This document shows positions 11,575 to 43,326 of a stretch of DNA of 64,000 bases, one piece after another (the first letter of the stretch is position 1; each line of letters opens with the position of its first letter). The DNA is from Candidatus Helarchaeota archaeon (GTDB taxonomy: Archaea > Asgardarchaeota > Lokiarchaeia > Helarchaeales > RDOG01). The DNA lies in contig JAHPZH010000003.1 of NCBI GenBank assembly GCA_019058315.1, forward strand, positions 169,669 to 233,668. The letters are read 5' to 3'. The notes beneath the pieces were generated by a model. That model ran no database searches. It had not been told where the DNA came from and was given only the letters and a program-made list of their open reading frames with translations. A program made the position numbers and the translations under genes.

Positions 11575-12462
11575 GTGGAAAAAAAATTTGGAAAATTATT
11601 TGAAAAAGAAAAGATTGACAGGATTTTGAAACTTTTATCTGAATATTTTGAAAAAGATGATGAAGAATTATTATTAGAAAATATAGAATATCTTGAAAAA
11701 CTATGTTTTACAATTAAAGAGAAAGAATGGGTCTTTTCGAAAGATATTATTGATATCATAATTAAAAATTTGAATAATAAATGGTGGCATGTTCGTCAAG
11801 ACCTAATTATTCTTATCGGTAAAATAACTGAACTTTTTCCCAAAGAATTAATTCAGATAGATTTAGAGCCTATTATTGCTCAATTAAAAGAGATTTTTAT
11901 TAGCGATAATGACGAAGATAACAGATACCACGCTCTCAGAGTAATTGGAAAAGTTGGACTTATCGCACCTAATAAGTGTTTGCAATTCCTACTAAATCAA
12001 TTATATGATCCCAATCCTAAAATACAAGTATATTCTATTAATGCTTTGACTGAAATCGCAAATCAACATATAGGAGAAGTTAAGGAAATATTACCATTCC
12101 TTACAGAAAGCCTTCAAAAAGAGAATAAAGATCCTTTTGTAGTTCCAATTTTAGAAGAAGCAATAAAAAATATTAGTGAACATCTTTATGATGAGAAAAT
12201 TACCGACTTTATGACGACAGAGCTAATATCTTGTCCTTATTGTAAGGAATTTTATCCTGCTAAATCCGATGTATGTACAAATTGCGGAAGAGAAGTAGCT
12301 AAGTGCATAATCTGCGGACAAAAATTACAACATGAAACAGATATGAAACCATGTCCTTATTGCAAAACAATTTTCCATAAAAGACATATTCTAGAATGGG
12401 TACAAGACAAACATAATTGTCCCTCTTGTATGCGTTCCTTGTTTGAAGAAGATTTGAAATAA
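11575..12462 (+). CDS. HEAT-repeat protein with C-terminal zinc ribbon and RING-like domain
   Basis: HEAT units (WHVRQDLIILIGKI, DNRYHALRVIGKV, KIQVYSINALTEI); CPYC..CTNC ribbon; CIIC..CPYC..HKRHILEW..CPSC. Confidence 0.8.
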   Translation: MEKKFGKLFEKEKIDRILKLLSEYFEKDDEELLLENIEYLEKLCFTIKEKEWVFSKDIIDIIIKNLNNKWWHVRQDLIILIGKITELFPKELIQIDLEPIIAQLKEIFISDNDEDNRYHALRVIGKVGLIAPNKCLQFLLNQLYDPNPKIQVYSINALTEIANQHIGEVKEILPFLTESLQKENKDPFVVPILEEAIKNISEHLYDEKITDFMTTELISCPYCKEFYPAKSDVCTNCGREVAKCIICGQKLQHETDMKPCPYCKTIFHKRHILEWVQDKHNCPSCMRSLFEEDLK

Positions 12463-35736: not shown

Positions 35737-36522
35737 ATGAAAGATATAATCCTTGCAATTGGAGCTCATCCTGATGATATTGATTTTTTTGCTGGGGGAA
35801 CAATTGCGAAATTCTGTGAGGAAGGTAAAGAAGCGTATTTTCTTATAACAACTGATGGACAACGTGGATCTTTGAGACCTGATACAGACCCTAAAACTCT
35901 TATTGCCACCAGAGCAAAAGAGGCAAGAGCTGCCGCAAAGGTTTTAGGTGTTAAAGAAGTTTTTTTTCTAGGTTATGAAGATGGTTTCTTAGATCGAACA
36001 CCACATCTCGAATTAAGAGAACATTATATTAAATATATTCGTAAACTTAAACCTAATATTCTTATGACATTCGACCCATGGAACCCATATGAACCACATA
36101 GTGACCATAGGAAAGTCTCTCTTGCTGCATTTGAAAGTTGCTATTTTTGTCATTATCCCCTTTTTCATCCGGAATCAAAACCAATTCATTTTGTATCGGA
36201 AATATGGCTCTTTCGATCTCCTAACCCAGATACTTGGATACAATTAAAAAATGTTCGAACTAAAATAAAGGCTTTGGCAAAACACGCATCCCAAATCCAA
36301 ATGTTACGAGAAGAAATATTAGGGCAATTAAAATCAGCAAATATCGAAACCTCGATATTAGAAGCACTTGATAATAAAACACTTCTTGATATATTTGTTC
36401 GCAATATGGCTGAACAAGATGGGAAAAAGCAAGGTTACAAATTTGCAGAGGCTTTTAAAGTGTTTAAAATAGGATATGTCGAAGATATAAGGGTAATCAT
36501 CGAAAAGATGAAAGAGTTATAA
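35737..36522 (+). CDS. PIG-L/LmbE family deacetylase
   Basis: AHPDD, TDGQRG, HSDH and ALAKHASQ. Confidence 0.92.
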   Translation: MKDIILAIGAHPDDIDFFAGGTIAKFCEEGKEAYFLITTDGQRGSLRPDTDPKTLIATRAKEARAAAKVLGVKEVFFLGYEDGFLDRTPHLELREHYIKYIRKLKPNILMTFDPWNPYEPHSDHRKVSLAAFESCYFCHYPLFHPESKPIHFVSEIWLFRSPNPDTWIQLKNVRTKIKALAKHASQIQMLREEILGQLKSANIETSILEALDNKTLLDIFVRNMAEQDGKKQGYKFAEAFKVFKIGYVEDIRVIIEKMKEL

Positions 36523-36758
36523 AAAAGATATTAAAAAATGATATTTTGCTCTTTTTCTTTAATAAAAAAATTTTTTTATAAAATAAATACACAAAATGAG
36601 TTTGCATTGTTTAATATTGCCAATATCATAACGCTTTTTAAGAATCATTAAGAATCAGTTCTAATGTAGGATTGGGAAAAATTCCTTTTTAAAGTAATTA
36701 AAAGAATTTGTAAACCTTCCAAATCTTGCTAAAATTAAAAATAAAAGGGTGAAACTTC

Positions 36759-37760
36759 ATGGAGAGAAGAGTAAAATTAGGGTTAGTAGTAGTATTAATT
36801 CTTTTTGCAAGTGGTGCAGGAATTACAGGACTGATCTTAGTAAGCACGAGTCAAGAATTCCCAGCAGGGTTACTGCTTTTAGGAGCTGCTCCACAACAAT
36901 CCAATGGTGGTGGGACCGGCCCAGGAACGCTAGGAACGCCAACAGGAGTAAGCGCTACTGATGGCACGTCAACATCGTATTCTACGGTAACATGGAACGG
37001 GGTTTCTGGAGCTGAATCATACCACGTGTATAGATCCACATCTCCCTCAGGAACATACTCGCATATAGGGCAGACAACATCCTTATCTTTTAATGATGTA
37101 TCTGCTGGACAGGGAACTCTCTATTATTATAAAGTAAGGGCATATTCACTGGAATTAGGTTATAGTGATTACAGTTCCTATGATACGGGCTTTAAAAAGC
37201 TAATTGCGCCTACTGGAGTAATTGCTACTAATGGTACATCAACATCATATTCTCGAGTAACCTGGAATAGTGTTACTGGAGCTGAGTCATACTATATATA
37301 TCGATCAACATCTTCCTCAGGATCTTACTCATATATAGGACAAACTTCATCATTATCTTACGATGATACATCCGCAGGACCTGGAACTCTTTATTATTAC
37401 AAAGTTAGAGCTCATTCCTCAGTATTTGGGTTTAGTGATTACAGTTCCTATGATACGGGTTTTAAAAAACTATCTACACCTACTGGAGTGTCTGCATCGG
37501 ATGGAACTTATTCTGACTGGGTGCGAGTAACATGGAATGCTGTACCTGGAGCTGATTTATATGGTGTATTTGTATTCAGTTCTAGTAGTATGAGTGATTT
37601 TCTTTATATGGCAGGAGAAACAGCGTCCCTATCTTTGGATGATACAATTGCAGGGATAATTTTTGATGGAATTGTTTTATACTATAGAGTTGCAGCAGCG
37701 TCTTTTTCATCTAACTCAACTAGTGACCTTAGTAGTTATAATACCGGATATACATTTTAA
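36759..37760 (+). CDS. Secreted or membrane-anchored protein with three fibronectin type III repeats
   Basis: N-terminal hydrophobic segment; 3x PTGVSA(T/S)DGT...VTWN.V.GA..Y...YYKVRA...S.YDTG. Confidence 0.85.
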   Translation: MERRVKLGLVVVLILFASGAGITGLILVSTSQEFPAGLLLLGAAPQQSNGGGTGPGTLGTPTGVSATDGTSTSYSTVTWNGVSGAESYHVYRSTSPSGTYSHIGQTTSLSFNDVSAGQGTLYYYKVRAYSLELGYSDYSSYDTGFKKLIAPTGVIATNGTSTSYSRVTWNSVTGAESYYIYRSTSSSGSYSYIGQTSSLSYDDTSAGPGTLYYYKVRAHSSVFGFSDYSSYDTGFKKLSTPTGVSASDGTYSDWVRVTWNAVPGADLYGVFVFSSSSMSDFLYMAGETASLSLDDTIAGIIFDGIVLYYRVAAASFSSNSTSDLSSYNTGYTF

Positions 37761-37892
37761 TATTTTAATTTTCCTTTTTTTTTCTAATTTTGGCAGTTTT
37801 TTTTCTTCCAAGGGATTGTTTTTTAATAGTTTTAGGAAATTAAAAATAATTAACTCATGTATTTTTAATCCTAAAAAATAAAATGAAGAAAA

Positions 37893-38063
37893 ATGCACGA
37901 ATTAGAGATTTGTTATATCTGTAAAAAAGAAATTACAGAAGATAGAGCTAATTGTGCTTATTGCAATACACCTTATCATAAAAAAGAACTAAATAATTGG
38001 ATAAAACGCTTTAAAAAATGTCCAAGATGTGGTAGGGAATTGAAAGAATTCGTAATTATGTAG
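37893..38063 (+). CDS. Stand-alone 56-aa RING-like zinc-finger protein (not in ORF track)
   Basis: Manual translation: MHELEICYICKKEITEDRANCAYCNTPYHKKELNNWIKRFKKCPRCGRELKEFVIM*. Confidence 0.8.
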   Translation: MHELEICYICKKEITEDRANCAYCNTPYHKKELNNWIKRFKKCPRCGRELKEFVIM

Positions 38064-38078
38064 ACGATTCCTCCTTTA

Positions 38079-38175
38079 CCTTGACTCTAAATTTTTTAAA
38101 TAATATTTAATTAAACTATATTGTATTATTTTGATAAAACAATTGAAGCAATTTTTGGTAATATTTCGGGGGTTT
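38079..38175 (+). promoter_or_regulatory. Conserved upstream/promoter block of TM-RING paralog A
   Basis: Closely matches 39582-39685 (actctaaattttttaaataatatttaattaaa...aaacaattgaag...atatttcgggggttt). Confidence 0.65.
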
Positions 38176-38197
38176 TTGACTGAAAACCAAAGATAAA

Positions 38198-39103
38198 GTG
38201 AAAGGAGTTTTGACACTAATAGGAATTATCATATTAATAATAGGCGTTTATTTAGTTTTAACATTCATTTTTATAACAAGGGATAATTATAGAATGCAAG
38301 GAGAATGGGGCATATTTTTAATTATTATTAGTTTATATCCAAATATCCCAGATCATATTAACTTGGGACTTACTCTTATAATTTTTAGGAATTTAAATGA
38401 AGGACGACTACCTTTAGGATCAACTTTAACATTTATGGGTATACTTTTATTGTTACTCCCATGGATTTCTGGGTTTAGAACTAAGGCTAAAGCGCAAAGT
38501 GTATTGACAATCATTGGAATTAGCTTGGAATTAATTGCTCTTAATTTACTATTAACAAATACCAATATGGGAGTAGTTTTTGCTTGGGGAGCGGGTTTAG
38601 GTGTAGTTGGAGCATGGATATTGGTTTTAACAAATGTCCATTGGAACTTAATGCAGACTGAGCGAGATCCAGGTTATAATCCAACCCAGCAAATTCGAGA
38701 AAGAATAAAAAAGCGTCCGTTCAAAATTAGACAAGACACAGAGAAAGTTCTAAAACTTTCAAAATGTCCTGTTTGTAAAGCTCCTTTAAAAGATAGTTCT
38801 AGTGACTTTTGTGAATCTTGTAATACAAAATTAATTAAATGTCCGATATGTAAACAACCGATTAACAAAGAAAACTTAATTTTCTGCCCATTTTGTAGTT
38901 CACCTTTTCATAAAACTGAATTTCTTGAATGGTTAAAAGTTCATGCTAATTGTCCTCGATGTAAAAATGAATTAGATATGTGGGAATTTCAAAAACATTT
39001 AGAGGAAAGTAAAAATGAGTTATCTAAGATTCAGTGTCCTGAATGTAAAAAATTCATACCAAATGATTGTAACTATTGTATCTTTTGTGGATTTAAAATA
39101 TGA
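38198..39103 (+). CDS. Membrane-anchored ZnF-RING-ZnF protein, paralog A (putative E3 ligase)
   Basis: About 5 TM segments; CPVC..CESC; CPIC..CPFC..FHKTEFLEW..CPRC; CPEC..CIFC. Confidence 0.8.
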   Translation: MKGVLTLIGIIILIIGVYLVLTFIFITRDNYRMQGEWGIFLIIISLYPNIPDHINLGLTLIIFRNLNEGRLPLGSTLTFMGILLLLLPWISGFRTKAKAQSVLTIIGISLELIALNLLLTNTNMGVVFAWGAGLGVVGAWILVLTNVHWNLMQTERDPGYNPTQQIRERIKKRPFKIRQDTEKVLKLSKCPVCKAPLKDSSSDFCESCNTKLIKCPICKQPINKENLIFCPFCSSPFHKTEFLEWLKVHANCPRCKNELDMWEFQKHLEESKNELSKIQCPECKKFIPNDCNYCIFCGFKI

Positions 39104-39130
39104 AATTATAATTACTAGATCTAATTCTTA

Positions 39131-39400
39131 TTAGCAGATTTGTTTATAAACAGGTGTAGTATCAACTAAAATAATTAATAAACACTTATTTTGTTGGAAG
39201 AGGTCTTTTGTATTATTCTCATCCAGCTTTTGAATTAATGTTATTAAATCTCCTTTTGAATCTTCAAGAAATTATATATTACTTTGGTAATCTTGTTTAA
39301 TGGATTCTGCAGTTTCAGTATTTATCAAGATAACACTAACAAAATGTTCCTTGATAGAAACTCGATTTTTCTCTTGAAAATGAACTTTAATTTCATTTTT
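39131..39400 (-). pseudogene. Truncated copy of the 3' end of the 882-aa beta-propeller gene (40655-40924)
   Basis: Colinear with 40655-40924 and ends ..DTTPVYKQIC*; TCA->TAA nonsense codon at 39272-39274; no 5' part. Confidence 0.88.
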
Positions 39401-39530
39401 GAACGCTAGGAACACCAACTGGAGTAAGTGCTACTGATGGCACGTCAACATCGTATTCTACGGTAACATGGAACGGGGTTTCTGGAGCTGAATCATACCA
39501 CGTGTATAGATCCAGATCTCCCTCAGGAAC
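39401..39530 (+). pseudogene. 130-bp internal fragment of the FN3 gene (copy of 36925-37054)
   Basis: About 4 mismatches in 130 nt; no start codon or continuation. Confidence 0.88.
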
Positions 39531-39581
39531 TTACGATTTAAAAAAATAACTATTATTTAACAATTTTGAAATTACCCTTTT

Positions 39582-39685
39582 CCTTAACTCTAAATTTTTT
39601 AAATAATATTTAATTAAATTATATTGTAATATTTTATATTTTATAAAAACAATTGAAGTACTTCTTTGAAATATTTCGGGGGTTT
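39582..39685 (+). promoter_or_regulatory. Conserved upstream/promoter block of TM-RING paralog B
   Basis: Homologous to 38079-38175. Confidence 0.65.
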
Positions 39686-39734
39686 GATTAAATATTAATT
39701 TTAATCCCACTCAATAACTTCATGATGATAAAAA

Positions 39735-40586
39735 TTGTCAAATAAAAGTATAAAAAATATAAGTTATGGAATTTTATACATTAATACTTATTTAACCTAC
39801 CTCTTATTTGTGGCATTTTTAACGTTAAGATCGTATAATAGGATTCGAAATCCTCAAAGTGTTGTATATTTGATTGGTATCATAGGTTTATTAATTTCCA
39901 CAATATTTCTTCTTTGTGGCTGTGATAATAAAAGAAGAAATATATTCTACTTTGGTTTAGGATTATTGGTTTTGGTCTCAATATTTTTAATAGTAAACGG
40001 AATCTTTATTTCTAATATTTATCCTAGTATATCAAGAATTCAAATTATATTATCTATTATAGCCTTAATTATTGCTTTTATCAGCTTTATTTTAAATAAA
40101 TATCAATGGGCAAGTGATTTATCTTATATAGAAGATAGACAGGATTATATTCCGATATCGAGATCTGGAGAAATTCGAAATCGTCCTTTTCCATATCATG
40201 AAATTAATACTGTTAAATCTGAAATAAATTTTAGATCAAAATACTTAATTTGTGATATATGCAATCATAAAAACGATATTTCCAATATCGTTTGTGCATC
40301 TTGTAATACAAAATTTAATAGATGTCCGATATGTAAACACCCGATTAGCAAAGAAGATTTAGTATTTTGCCCATTTTGTAATTCATCTTTTCATAAAACT
40401 GAATTTCTTGAATGGTTAAAAATTTATGCTAATTGTCCCCGTTGTAAAAAAGAATTAGATATGTGGGAATTTCAAAAGTATTTAGAGGAAAGTAAAAGTG
40501 AGTTATCTCAGATTCAATGTTCTGCATGTAAAAAATTAATACCAATTGATTGTAAGTATTGTATCTTTTGTGGAGCTAGGATCTAA
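39735..40586 (+). CDS. Membrane-anchored ZnF-RING-ZnF protein, paralog B (putative E3 ligase)
   Basis: 4 TM segments; CDIC..CASC; CPIC..CPFC..FHKTEFLEW..CPRC; CSAC..CIFC. Confidence 0.8.
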   Translation: MSNKSIKNISYGILYINTYLTYLLFVAFLTLRSYNRIRNPQSVVYLIGIIGLLISTIFLLCGCDNKRRNIFYFGLGLLVLVSIFLIVNGIFISNIYPSISRIQIILSIIALIIAFISFILNKYQWASDLSYIEDRQDYIPISRSGEIRNRPFPYHEINTVKSEINFRSKYLICDICNHKNDISNIVCASCNTKFNRCPICKHPISKEDLVFCPFCNSSFHKTEFLEWLKIYANCPRCKKELDMWEFQKYLEESKSELSQIQCSACKKLIPIDCKYCIFCGARI

Positions 40587-40654
40587 AAATATTATTATAA
40601 TATGTATTTCTTACCTAAAAACCAATTAGATGGTTTATTATAAGATTCAACTTT

Positions 40655-43303
40655 TCAGCAGATTTGTTTATAAATGGGTGTAGTATCTATTAAAACAATT
40701 AATAAGCACTTATTTAGTTGGAAGAGGTCTTTTGTAATATTCTCATCCAGTTTTTGAATTAAAGTTATCAAATCTCCTTTTGAATCTTCAACAAATGATA
40801 TATTACTTTGGTAATCTTGTTTAATGGATTCTGCAGTTTCTGTATTTATCAAGACAACACTGACAAAATGTTTCTTAATAGACACACGATATTTCTCTTG
40901 GAAATTAACTTTGATTTTATTTTCTAGCAATTCAATTGATTCAACTTTAGCTTTAACAGGGTTTATAGCAGGACCTTTAGCCTTTTCTAGACGATAAGTA
41001 CCAGCAGTCATAAAATTATTATCTTTGTTTTTAACGTTCATCAAATCCAAAATAGGACCGAATAGTGGAATATCTGTAACTGGTGTTTCAAAATAAGCTG
41101 TCGCACCCGTTTTTAATTCTTTTCTTTCATTGAATTGTCCAGATATTTTTAATAATTTGAAGGGCATTCCTACTCCTGCCCAATCTAATCTGAAACCGGA
41201 TGCGAATATCGAAAAAGTTCCATCATCATCATAAGTCAGATCGAGAGGAAATCGAAATGGTGTACTTGAAGGTTGAGCAATTACTTTATAAGAAGCTGGG
41301 CGAGGATCAGAATCACGTTCTATGCCTGTAATTTTTTCTCCCATCATACACCAGAATATATATCGCTGTTTATTTGGATCATGATAAACGGGTGAGGCAA
41401 TCAAGTAAACATCATCCATTGCAATTATTGATAAGTTCATTATTAGGGCTTCTTGCCAAGGAAAAATATTTCTCAAGACAAAAATGTCCCCAGGTTTCTG
41501 TGCTTCGGCATCACCAATTTGAATTAGCAGTTCATTTTTTGGTTTAATTGGCGTAGAATGAGCTGTTTTGAAAGTGAAATTAGTGTCAAATTTCCCTTCG
41601 GCTTTTTTACCACGCCAATATCGATCAAGTCTAACGGATCTCCAGCCATATTTTTTAGGAATAATATAATTACCGGTAATTTGAAGTGTGTAGGTTTCAC
41701 CAGGTTGAAGAAATTCCATTGGGACGATATTTATATAGCGTGCATCTGTTGAAATTTGAATGTGCATTTTAAATTCAATATCAGATTTCACTTCAACGTT
41801 TTCAATTCGTACATCTTGTAATTGACCTTTTTTGGTTACTATTAGACGGAAAAAAAGTGTATCAGACCGTCCAAGAGGTTGTTCAGCTTTAATATCATAT
41901 TTATCTTTATCAGTTCTTTTCAATTCTTCTAAAATTGGATGCCCTCCAGGACTAACACGAACAATATATATTCCATCTTCTGGCCAATCAGGGGTAGGAT
42001 TAAAGTTACAACGCAGATCTTGATGAGCTTTTTTAGATTCCATGTAAGAGAATGGAATATAATACAAATTTCCATTTTGATTAGATGCATATATTCCGCT
42101 TGGTGAGAGTGCAATCGAAGAAGGGACAAAATGATAGCGATCTAATTCATCAAATTCTTCGGATGCATTAAATTGATGACAATCAAAGCTCCAAATGCGG
42201 TTCCCATCTTTTCCAGATAATTTGTATATGTTTCCATCTCCACTTGCAATATATACATTATCATCTTGGTCCAAAACACACCCACACCGATTCGGTCCAA
42301 GAGTGGGAAAGGACCATTTCATTTTTCCTGTTTCTGCGTCTAACGCATAGACAATTCCATCGGAGGAAGAAACAATAACTGTGGATCCGTCATGTGTCAC
42401 TGTTGCTGATGACCATACATCACTCTTTGTATGGAATCTCCATTTAACTCTTTGATCTTCAGGAAGATCTTTTTCACTTCTAAAACAGTAAATATTATTA
42501 TTTCCTGACCCGATAACAACGCTACCATCATCAAGAATTGTGGGTGACGCACCTGCCATTCCATAAATAGGATATTCCCATCTTAATTCTCCATTATCGT
42601 CTACACTGCGAAAATATGTATCTAAACATCCAAAATAATGGTCACCTTCTGGGGCAAATCCAGTCGGAGACCCACTCCATATTTGATTACGAGTCATAAA
42701 CTCTGGAACAGCACGTTTCATAGTTTCAGGATCAATTTGGTAAAAAGCAAAATCATCACAAGGTGCTAATAAACGTCCAGTTCCAGAAAATGTAAAATCA
42801 GATTCAAACCAATTACATTTTGGAACACCCATAAATTTTTCGTCTATATAATGATCAGTAGCTTCAAAGGCTCCTATAATTTCTCCAGTTTGGCAGTCTA
42901 CTTTACGGGCGAAACCATCTGCTCCTGGGAAAAAAACATAATCTTTTTCTTGTCCAGTTTTTGGATCTGTCCTTCTGGCTATTACGGCTGCATCGTCAAT
43001 AACATTGTCTGTTTTAAATTTCCATTTTAAAGATCCATCTGGATTAATGGCATAAAAATAAGTATCAGCAGAACCTAAATATATGGTGCCGTCTGCACCT
43101 ATAACTGGAGCACAAGTAATTGCCTTACCGGTTTTAAATGCCCATGGCTTGTCCGGAAATTTTATATTCTTTGAAAAAATTTTATCTTTCCAATTCGGAG
43201 CTCTACCAGTATTTCGTATATCTGCTCTTAAACTCGGCCAAAATGCTTTTTCATCTAAACGCCAATAGGGTGATTTTAACTTTTTTTTTTTCATCTTTAT
43301 CAA
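40655..43303 (-). CDS. PQQ-like (BamB-type) beta-propeller repeat protein with a large C-terminal region
   Basis: Repeated DGSLKWKF, GELRWEY, TGKMKWSF and DGNRIWSF blades; no obvious signal peptide. Confidence 0.8.
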   Translation of the reverse strand: MIKMKKKKLKSPYWRLDEKAFWPSLRADIRNTGRAPNWKDKIFSKNIKFPDKPWAFKTGKAITCAPVIGADGTIYLGSADTYFYAINPDGSLKWKFKTDNVIDDAAVIARRTDPKTGQEKDYVFFPGADGFARKVDCQTGEIIGAFEATDHYIDEKFMGVPKCNWFESDFTFSGTGRLLAPCDDFAFYQIDPETMKRAVPEFMTRNQIWSGSPTGFAPEGDHYFGCLDTYFRSVDDNGELRWEYPIYGMAGASPTILDDGSVVIGSGNNNIYCFRSEKDLPEDQRVKWRFHTKSDVWSSATVTHDGSTVIVSSSDGIVYALDAETGKMKWSFPTLGPNRCGCVLDQDDNVYIASGDGNIYKLSGKDGNRIWSFDCHQFNASEEFDELDRYHFVPSSIALSPSGIYASNQNGNLYYIPFSYMESKKAHQDLRCNFNPTPDWPEDGIYIVRVSPGGHPILEELKRTDKDKYDIKAEQPLGRSDTLFFRLIVTKKGQLQDVRIENVEVKSDIEFKMHIQISTDARYINIVPMEFLQPGETYTLQITGNYIIPKKYGWRSVRLDRYWRGKKAEGKFDTNFTFKTAHSTPIKPKNELLIQIGDAEAQKPGDIFVLRNIFPWQEALIMNLSIIAMDDVYLIASPVYHDPNKQRYIFWCMMGEKITGIERDSDPRPASYKVIAQPSSTPFRFPLDLTYDDDGTFSIFASGFRLDWAGVGMPFKLLKISGQFNERKELKTGATAYFETPVTDIPLFGPILDLMNVKNKDNNFMTAGTYRLEKAKGPAINPVKAKVESIELLENKIKVNFQEKYRVSIKKHFVSVVLINTETAESIKQDYQSNISFVEDSKGDLITLIQKLDENITKDLFQLNKCLLIVLIDTTPIYKQIC

Positions 43304-43326
43304 AAAATAAGGGAGATTGAGGAATT

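Follow-up and report, generated by a model that had tools for sequence, protein, structure and literature searches.

The closest described counterparts of the proteins discussed here are the transmembrane (TM) RING ubiquitin ligases (E3s) of eukaryotes, i.e. the MARCH/RING-CH proteins, the PA-TM-RING proteins such as RNF13/RMR, and the Hrd1 type (reviewed in PMC4021871 and PMC4897099). RING E3s have also been listed among the eukaryote-like proteins of Asgard archaea (PMC13734099), a cascade of Asgard ubiquitin-activating (E1), ubiquitin-conjugating (E2) and RING enzymes has been reconstituted in vitro (bioRxiv 10.1101/2023.07.25.550441), and parts of Asgard ESCRT-I and ESCRT-II bind ubiquitin (PMC9192718). 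Here, we analyzed a tandem gene pair encoding putative membrane-anchored proteins with RING-like tails, gene 1 (38198–39103, 301 amino acids) and gene 2 (39735–40586, 283 amino acids), located in a 64,000-nucleotide (nt) stretch of a Candidatus Helarchaeota genome (G000:C11:169669-233668; hereafter the window, to which plain coordinates refer). Full-text searches of the literature turned up no membrane RING family of this kind in Asgard archaea. The host genome is metagenome-derived with an estimated contamination of 6.6%, and comprises 5.79 Mb in 12 contigs, to which the labels C2, C3, C9, C10 and C11 refer, with 30% G+C.

Like the eukaryotic TM RING E3s, the two proteins are predicted to combine membrane helices with a cytoplasmic RING, and they belong to an expanded paralogue family with variable non-RING parts. 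They differ in lacking membership of the eukaryotic families at the sequence level, in having a CxxC pair as RING ligands 3 and 4, Glu as ligand 6 and two flanking zinc ribbons, and in that their host is an archaeon with no known endomembranes and their E3 role is putative. A second point of comparison is the small RING E3 of archaeal ubiquitin-E1-E2 operons, of which srfp from Caldiarchaeum is reportedly an example and the RING E3 of the reconstituted Asgard cascade another. Its RING is homologous, and that of the host's own operon has the same motif layout, with His at ligand 6, but the operon RINGs are soluble, single-copy and linked to E1, E2 and ubiquitin genes, whereas the proteins investigated here are membrane-anchored, multi-copy, unlinked to ubiquitin genes and carry Glu at this position.

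A sequence-only reading of the same DNA had interpreted the pair as a polymorphic cassette locus in which membrane modules are exchanged on a constant E3 scaffold. Our analysis favors a different history, to which we assign a probability of roughly two in three: the shared flanks would result from a local rearrangement between two older neighboring paralogues, and the pair would be membrane-anchored RING-tail members of a young, lineage-restricted family.

Shared flanks, scars and unrelated membrane parts

Genes 1 and 2 are intact, co-oriented open reading frames situated between a gene for an FN3-like protein and a convergent PQQ gene, and in both proteins hydrophobic helices are followed by a basic linker and then by a tail in which a RING-like domain and a helix lie between two zinc ribbons. 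A self-BLASTN repeat search recovered two homologous regions on the plus strand. The first comprises upstream block 1 (38073–38175, 103 nt), an A/T-rich TATA-like stretch followed by a conserved leader with the end ATTTCGGGGG, and its copy, upstream block 2 (39576–39685, 110 nt), with 84.5% identity over 110 columns and one 7-nt indel, an insertion in block 2; the block had no further occurrence beyond these two copies when the 5.8-Mb genome was searched by blastn. The second region pairs 38788–39399 with 40271–40923 (83% identity, one 41-nt indel) and includes the C-terminal modules of gene 1 (38788–39103, encoding the second knuckle of zinc ribbon 1, the RING, the helix and zinc ribbon 2) and gene 2 (40271–40586, the presumed donor copy of the zinc ribbon-RING-zinc ribbon module). 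These modules are 88% identical at the DNA level and 72% at the amino acid level, and within them a segment aligns without gaps (38816–39091 and 40299–40574, 249 of 276 nt identical). The shared upstream block and the gap-free segment had both been described in the sequence-only reading and were confirmed, as was the presence of membrane N-termini and a zinc ribbon-RING-zinc ribbon tail in both genes, the central domain having a RING fold (see below).

The shared DNA extends further than that reading had placed it, into a copy of the 3′ end of the PQQ gene. Homology passes the stop codon of gene 1 and runs via the spacer into a 273-nt scar on the minus strand (39127–39399, hereafter the PQQ scar), which represents the last 88 codons of the PQQ gene, is 90% identical to 40651–40923 and contains one nonsense codon. 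This scar adjoins a second one at 39399|39401, the FN3 scar (39401–39534, plus strand), whose 134 nt are 96.3% identical to 36925–37058 of the FN3-like gene; its nearest match there is repeat 1 (96%), the match to repeat 2 being 80%. For the 41 nt between the FN3 scar and upstream block 2 (39535–39575), no source sequence was identified. The left edge of the second homologous region is abrupt: 24-nt windows go from 7–11 to 21–23 matches between 38784 and 38808, with identity stepping from about 35–45% to at least 88% at approximately 38796–38808, and the edge falls inside the first zinc ribbon, separating its two knuckles.

Between these flanks, the membrane-coding parts including the linkers (gene 1, 38198–38787, with a GTG start and about five hydrophobic helices; gene 2, 39735–40270, with a TTG start, an N-terminus without ATG and four hydrophobic helices; both on the plus strand, helix counts from hydropathy only) showed no similarity. 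The best 60-nt diagonal window had 35 of 60 matches, with shuffled sequences averaging 33.9 and reaching 37 at most, and neither part had any other match in the 5.8-Mb genome by blastn or, in any frame, by tblastx, so that no cryptic source was found. At the protein level, the N-termini were 28% identical in a forced global alignment, which is about chance level, and local alignment gave z = 3.4 (1 of 300 shuffles). Alignment of the N-termini by profile methods, which had been set beforehand as a test, was run and gave no alignment: a profile of gene-1-type N-termini failed to find gene 2, and the hhalign probability was about 1%. The dissimilarity claimed by the sequence-only reading thus holds for DNA, protein shuffles and profiles, and the failure of the N-termini to align by profile methods leads us to regard the pair as a true mosaic.

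Two other pairs from the family were used for calibration. In the orthologue pair C2:109771/L059b, the modules are 72% and the membrane parts 59% identical, and in the tandem pair C2:110913/C2:112007 the corresponding values are 62% and 35%. The gene 2 membrane part had no relative outside the host genome in word-indexed searches at near and shorter lengths or in searches of genome contigs and metagenome contigs, and a feature search of the ESM Atlas with both N-termini gave no usable match. Within the host, a distant relationship between this part and the paralogue C2:109771-110916 is possible, as its N-terminus aligned collinearly with a pairwise z of 7.7, although a three-sequence profile did not confirm this.

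Related loci and the proposed rearrangement

An exhaustive HMMER search with the gene 1 N-terminus retrieved only two relatives outside the host, both at the syntenic locus, in GCA_048940975.1 (L057) and GCA_013375355.1 (L058). In L057, genes for SfsA, GDT1, an acetyltransferase and PIG-L are followed by a 56-amino-acid RING gene (mini-RING) and by a gene 1 orthologue that continues up to the contig end. The orthologue is 80% identical in nucleotides and 60% in amino acids, and the upstream block is also kept 5′ of it. As L057 has ATG where gene 1 has GTG, the GTG start of gene 1 is confirmed. In L058, the PIG-L gene is followed by two glycosyltransferase genes and a GH130 glycoside hydrolase gene and then by a degraded gene 1 from which two helices and the entire RING have been deleted; a convergent 103-amino-acid gene lies directly behind this remnant, with a cyclophilin gene after it, and the locus contains neither a PQQ gene nor a gene 2. 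The convergent gene (L058:10342-10653, minus strand) encodes a Cys-rich, zinc-ribbon-like protein without a Pfam family, and in the host genome only a scar of its last five codons and stop was found, at 39701–39718.

Because L057 carries the PIG-L gene, the mini-RING, the upstream block and a gene 1 orthologue, upstream block 1 and membrane part 1 are ancestral to gene 1 and old residents of the locus. The opposite polarity, i.e. an ancestral gene 2 N-terminus with that of gene 1 as the newcomer, was considered and dropped, since both L057 and L058 have gene 1 orthologues at the syntenic place. The history of gene 2 is recorded in a short scar at 39685–39718, directly after upstream block 2 and just before the gene 2 start, which reads as the last codons and stop of an older RING gene followed, on the minus strand, by VIEWD-stop, the tail of the convergent gene. 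It matches the end of the L058 RING gene plus the tail of the 103-amino-acid gene at 34 of 37 positions (shuffle maximum 26), and is the best genome-wide match to that L058 stretch (E 1.5e-7). The scar implies that the gene 2 membrane part once lay directly 3′ of the stop codon of a gene-1-type gene, and upstream block 2 would consequently have been put before gene 2 later than the arrival of gene 2 behind that gene. The rearrangement is younger than the split from the L057 and L058 relatives, because the tails of genes 1 and 2 have diverged by a synonymous rate (dS) of 0.22 (nonsynonymous rate, dN, 0.126), compared to a dS of 0.45–0.82 for most flanking genes between the host and these relatives, and because the FN3 scar requires the FN3-like gene, which is not present at the L057 locus.

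From these data, the following sequence of events is proposed. The ancestor would have carried the mini-RING, gene 1 with its own tail, and the convergent 103-amino-acid gene. An FN3-like gene would then have been inserted upstream, and gene 2 together with the PQQ gene would have replaced the 103-amino-acid gene, leaving its tail behind. The third step may have taken either of two routes: (a) a duplication from 36925 (in the FN3-like gene) to 40923 (in the PQQ gene) followed by three deletions of redundant halves, or (b) one repair event with four template switches, in which the gene 1 tail gave way to a patchwork of three pieces, namely tail 2 as a copy along with the PQQ scar, the FN3 scar, and block 1 as a copy. 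Both routes would yield exactly the present order, and we make no choice between them. In either case, the original tail of gene 1 would have been swapped for a copy of the gene 2 tail and the PQQ 3′ end, and a fragment of the FN3-like gene plus a copy of the gene 1 promoter and leader would have been set before gene 2, which would thereby have been supplied with a promoter of its own. The gene 1 side is identified as the copy because the intact PQQ gene adjoins gene 2, and the PQQ scar|FN3 scar junction joins a far end to a near end and is therefore a signature of tandem segmental duplication.

Among known rearrangements, the locus thus resembles segmental duplication with reciprocal deletion, or template switching of the type of fork stalling and template switching (FoSTeS) or microhomology-mediated break-induced replication (MMBIR), with respect to the far-end-to-near-end junction, the scars of flanking genes, and the several short patches copied from within 2.5 kb. 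It differs in that the patches are unequally diverged, and microhomology does not decide the mechanism. If correct, the rearrangement makes this locus a clear, datable case of family growth by module copying and promoter capture in which no cassette machinery is needed, and illustrates that conserved flanks around unrelated cores can arise by duplication and reciprocal deletion between older neighbors, a history which scars in the spacer and in relatives can expose.

Several observations weigh against this history. Divergence is uneven across the copied patches, at 3.7% for the FN3 scar, 9.9% for the PQQ scar and about 15% for the upstream block, a pattern not expected if one event had been followed only by neutral decay. 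Most differences between the PQQ scar and the PQQ gene are at synonymous sites (dN 0.054, dS 0.315, dN/dS 0.17; 25 differences distributed as 9/3/13 over the three codon positions), a weak hint that part of the copied DNA may have diverged while functional or under selection, e.g. in another strain. Furthermore, the gene 2 type was found in no other genome, so that its earlier position is read only from the 34-nt scar, and other orders and numbers of steps are possible.

The C-terminal module and its possible role

An alignment of ten modules from the host showed 15 Cys/His residues (the zinc ligands) to be invariant or nearly so, in addition to E57, E60, W61, L62 and K63. An AlphaFold2 model of the module had a predicted local distance difference test score of 82.5, and together with the Foldseek and profile comparisons it showed a RING cross-brace fold with a central helix. 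In searches against sequences of structures in the PDB, the module profile matched RNF126 (4.1e-5) and Arkadia (4.4e-5), followed by RNF24, RNF38 and RBX1 (1e-3 to 5e-3). Foldseek ranked C-terminal domains from IFT-A and GATOR2 first (E 1.6e-4) and many RING E3s thereafter, including EL5, RNF126 and RNF165, the latter with a root-mean-square deviation of 1.3 Å over 46 residues and a template modeling score of 0.78 by target. Seven RING ligands are invariant Cys or His (C31, C34, C46, C49, H54, C68, C71) instead of eight, and ligands 3 and 4 form a C-x2-C pair, unlike the RING-H2 pattern. The only Pfam models exceeding their cut-offs were DZR (PF12773; 34.7 and 35.9 bits vs. 27.3), which passed on both proteins, and DUF7575, which passed for gene 1, and the three-part module as a unit matched no curated family. 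The proteins also fall outside the RING-CH/MARCH type, as the TM helices come first and the RING last, the last-but-two ligand position holds a Glu and RINGv is not among the Pfam matches. The module is thus best regarded, based on the model and the profiles, as a RING-fold domain of variant type and not as a member of a curated RING family.

Partners for such a RING are encoded in the host. Three full E2s were found among five matches to UQ_con (PF00179), together with three matches over cut-off to ubiquitin (PF00240) and two ThiF E1-like proteins in two operons, so that the expectation of the sequence-only reading that the host encodes E1, E2 and ubiquitin was correct. The C10 cluster comprises genes for an E1-like protein, an E2, a ubiquitin with a terminal GG, and an 87-amino-acid RING with the pattern C-x2-C ... 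C-x2-C-x4-H-x2-[H/E] ... W ... C-x2-C and His at ligand 6, which scores 57 bits against the hidden Markov model (HMM) of the module. The co-oriented C2 cluster (G000:C2:151500-158800, L060) encodes ubiquitin, a ThiF E1, an E2, a JAB protease, a TM-RING protein of 422 amino acids, along with a Rab-like GTPase; the 422-amino-acid protein has five helices and a C-terminal RING that also matches the module HMM. The C2 cluster has the appearance of a membrane-directed ubiquitin operon.

A competing view of the module is that it is no ubiquitin ligase but a structural or interaction scaffold of zinc domains, or else a membrane-tethered array of zinc ribbons that binds nucleic acids or lipids, which we consider possible, if unlikely. 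The first-ranked Foldseek matches speak in its favor. The zinc finger-RING domains at the C-termini of IFT-A (IFT144/WDR19) and GATOR2/SEA are the best structural match over zinc ribbon 1 and the RING, and the profile aligns with IFT144/WDR19 C-termini over 90 columns in the same region (E 1e-4 to 4e-3). The corresponding domains of GATOR2 serve mainly as structural glue. They differ from the present module in forming soluble ends of propeller-solenoid proteins, and for such a small Cys-rich domain the likeness may reflect a shared fold only. The presence of non-catalytic scaffold RINGs among the best fold matches nevertheless counts against a ligase, as do the replacement of RING ligand 6 by an invariant Glu (E57) and the scores of the RING-type Pfam models, all below cut-off: zf-RING_2 reached 21.4 and 20.3 bits (cut-off 27.3) and Prok-RING_1 (PF14446), the best RING-type model at 22–27 bits, reached 22.2 and 24.7 bits (cut-off 29.1). 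The RING of the host's own ubiquitin operon scores equally low on Pfam RING models.

On the other side, the residues that usually contact the E2 in RING-E2 structures appear to be present, namely Ile33 between ligands 1 and 2, Trp61 in the helix and, in genes 1 and 2, Pro69 after ligand 7, as does a basic residue behind the last RING ligand. The module HMM matches both the small RING of the ubiquitin-E1-E2 operon and the TM-RING of the second ubiquitin operon, and E3 function has been demonstrated for operon RINGs of this kind from archaea (bioRxiv 10.1101/2023.07.25.550441). Because the host has E1, E2 and ubiquitin, because its operon RINGs are linked to the module by the HMM, and because an Asgard cascade has been reconstituted, a membrane E3 role is our best functional guess for genes 1 and 2, ligase activity itself being predicted only. 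The tail would then lie in the cytoplasm, where the RING would recruit a ubiquitin-charged E2, and the membrane part would set the location of the ligase and determine which membrane proteins meet it.

Alternative histories of the locus

Inter-strain recombination is an unlikely but coherent alternative for part of the locus, and could be combined with the local rearrangement preferred here. According to this explanation, tail 1 and the PQQ scar, and perhaps block 2, came from a diverged sister strain's version of the locus, and the differences between copies would represent strain divergence and not time since an in-place duplication. It would account for the unequal divergence of the patches and for the low dN/dS of the PQQ scar, as a dead scar compared to a live gene is expected to give a value of about 0.5, and relatives with 86–95% identity do occur in other sediment samples and assemblies. 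The counts are few, however (the 25 differences give, by our own estimate, p ~0.02 against the neutral-scar expectation), the scar contains a nonsense codon, no strain was found whose allele could have been the donor, and gene conversion from the intact genes could also have made the divergence uneven.

The dedicated cassette locus of the sequence-only reading, with membrane modules swapped between a constant promoter and a constant RING as recombination handles for surveillance or antiviral ubiquitylation, fares worse, and we find it very doubtful. It draws on the abrupt ends of homology that flank the unrelated membrane parts on either side, on a family with diverse N-termini and tandem arrays, on the position of the pair in an island of variable content bordered by the conserved PIG-L and cyclophilin genes, and on the evolution of gene 1, whose membrane part has a dN/dS of 0.74 relative to L057 (dN 0.247, dS 0.333), compared to 0.06–0.07 for the flanking acetyltransferase and PIG-L genes in the same orthologue comparison. 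The flanks, however, carry scars of both neighboring genes and of a gene since lost, a pattern that duplication and deletion would be expected to leave and a cassette mechanism would not. The upstream block is found at only two places in the genome and both membrane parts nowhere else, the neighbors being the FN3-like gene, the mini-RING and the PQQ gene, and spare cassettes, a recombinase or repeated recombination sites were not found. Of the two orthologous loci that were found, that of L057 keeps membrane part 1 with ordinary divergence (80% in nucleotides, the contig ending inside the gene), and that of L058 has a degraded gene 1 and no gene 2. Instead of membrane cassettes being exchanged on a constant scaffold, the constant parts seem to have been copied onto two older, different genes.

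The antiviral part of the proposal found no backing either, as no defense-family match was obtained with the PADLOC models: gene 1 gave a weak zinc-ribbon match only (PDC-S64, E 7e-4, 17 bits), and gene 2 and the mini-RING gave none. The suggestion of a diversifying system is upheld insofar as the gene 1 membrane part appears to be fast-evolving, relaxed constraint and positive selection not being separable with two sequences, and it fails with respect to the cassette mechanism.

With respect to the island, the stretches compared between the PIG-L and cyclophilin genes were 36525–43326 of the window, L057:2522-3342 and L058:4390-10714. The host has the FN3-like, RING and PQQ genes in this place, L057 the mini-RING and gene 1, and L058 two glycosyltransferases, the GH130 hydrolase, the degraded gene 1 and the 103-amino-acid zinc-ribbon gene.

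A simple tandem duplication of a single gene, with very fast divergence afterwards that was confined to the membrane part, is highly improbable despite a membrane part dN about five times that of the neighbors and the weak residual similarity of the N-termini (z = 3.4), since at a tail dS of 0.22 the family calibration predicts membrane parts well over 50% identical, DNA identity falls to chance level over about 12 nt, and neither the 39685–39718 scar nor the different helix numbers fit. Finally, the tandem pair is not an assembly artefact, because the PQQ scar|FN3 scar junction is bridged without mismatch by a 173-nt short-read contig (39287–39459; Logan contigs of the probable source sample, a check that does not depend on the assembler but does depend on the sample) and because contigs with membrane parts 1 and 2 have depths of 21 and 19 at flanking depths of 17–18; the stitching in tandem of two strain alleles of one locus, conceivable for a metagenomic genome with the contamination given above, thus deserves hardly any credence. 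The runs X2, X4 and X6 cover the stretch in small pieces only, and a joint in X2 that skips the FN3-like gene and a loose X2 end at 39742 were too weak to be used.

The RING family

The full module (113 profile positions, more than 125 bits) is present in ten copies in the host genome, which also contains partial and soluble forms. Tandem arrays are common to several of these, with three genes on C2, two on C3 and two at C11:141260 in addition to the pair of genes 1 and 2, and the N-termini comprise several unrelated multi-helix types as well as HEAT-like soluble domains. A tree built from the ten modules supported just two groupings, gene 1 with gene 2 (96/97) and C2:110913 with C2:112007 (97/95). 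One paralogue, C3:1135961-1137757, encodes a signal peptide, an extracellular-type propeller and one TM helix ahead of the RING tail, an arrangement resembling that of receptor-type RING E3s. Given the match of zinc ribbon 1 and the RING, in sequence and structure, to the C-terminal zinc domains of IFT144/WDR19 and GATOR2 subunits, this protein with its propeller and module tail may also bear on the origin of the C-terminal RINGs of protocoatomer proteins.

When 151 genomes of the class were searched, a score above 80 bits for the full module was reached only in the host genome, and relatives from the same order reached about 60 bits, covering only the first zinc ribbon and the RING. In scans of metagenome and species-representative collections no close relative turned up, and the module alignment gave only weak, mostly zinc-ribbon-only matches to metagenome contigs and none to genome contigs. 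The closest homologue of the family to carry a name lies in a metagenome-assembled genome labelled Candidatus Hodarchaeota, also an Asgard lineage. A Hodarchaeota metagenome-assembled genome (L059) encodes a tandem, overlapping triplet of the family (L059:8001-10684). The third gene of this triplet duplicates the membrane part of the second, and its zinc ribbon 1 and RING have been lost by internal deletion. Duplication, internal deletion between CxxC-coding repeats, and loss thus recur in the family, which we regard as young, lineage-restricted and fast-evolving.

It is tempting, though distinctly speculative, to see in this family rapidly diversifying archaeal membrane E3s whose fast-evolving membrane parts or ectodomains pick membrane targets, be they the cell's own, viral or foreign, for ubiquitylation. 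If so, the targets would be routed to the ubiquitin-ESCRT or proteasome pathways of Asgard archaea; new specificities would arise by duplication, shuffling of modules and capture of promoters, as at the present locus; and the family would correspond, on the archaeal side and in relatives of the ancestor of eukaryotes, to the eukaryotic MARCH/TRIM-like expansions. With its varied membrane and extracellular parts, it provides a concrete candidate for Asgard enzymes that mark membrane proteins.

Soluble proteins with a related tail were also observed. In the window, 12223–12441 (G000:C11:181243-182130) corresponds to a 295-amino-acid protein, helical and HEAT-like as judged from its sequence, that ends in the same zinc ribbon and RING (70 bits against the module HMM), and C9:155862-156719 encodes a similar protein.

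Neighboring genes and further observations

The stand-alone mini-RING gene (37893–38063, plus strand, 56 amino acids) has the pattern C-x2-C ... C-x2-C-x4-H-x2-E ... W ... C-x2-C, and thereby shares the H-x2-E variant with the membrane family. Its conservation in L057, where it also lies directly upstream of the gene 1 orthologue (86% amino acid identity, dN/dS 0.18), makes it likely to be a real gene, and it is a possible partner of gene 1.

The PQQ gene (40655–43303, minus strand) encodes an 882-amino-acid PQQ/BamB-like beta-propeller protein, is convergent with gene 2, and is the source of the PQQ scar through its 3′ end. Its orthologues in two genomes of the same order have other contexts, with no RING neighbor. 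An Rfam scan of 36500–41000 gave no credible family, and a scan for sigma-70 promoters and terminators, whose models are not applicable to archaea, was at chance level.

The gene 1 membrane part contains an internal repeat (38185–38263 and 38479–38557, 69.6% over 79 nt), and the segment between the repeat copies is deleted in L058, which suggests recombination between them. Upstream of the mini-RING, the FN3-like gene (36759–37760, plus strand) encodes a putative surface protein with a signal anchor and three 270-nt repeats, which span 36926–37735 and of which the first two are 77% alike.

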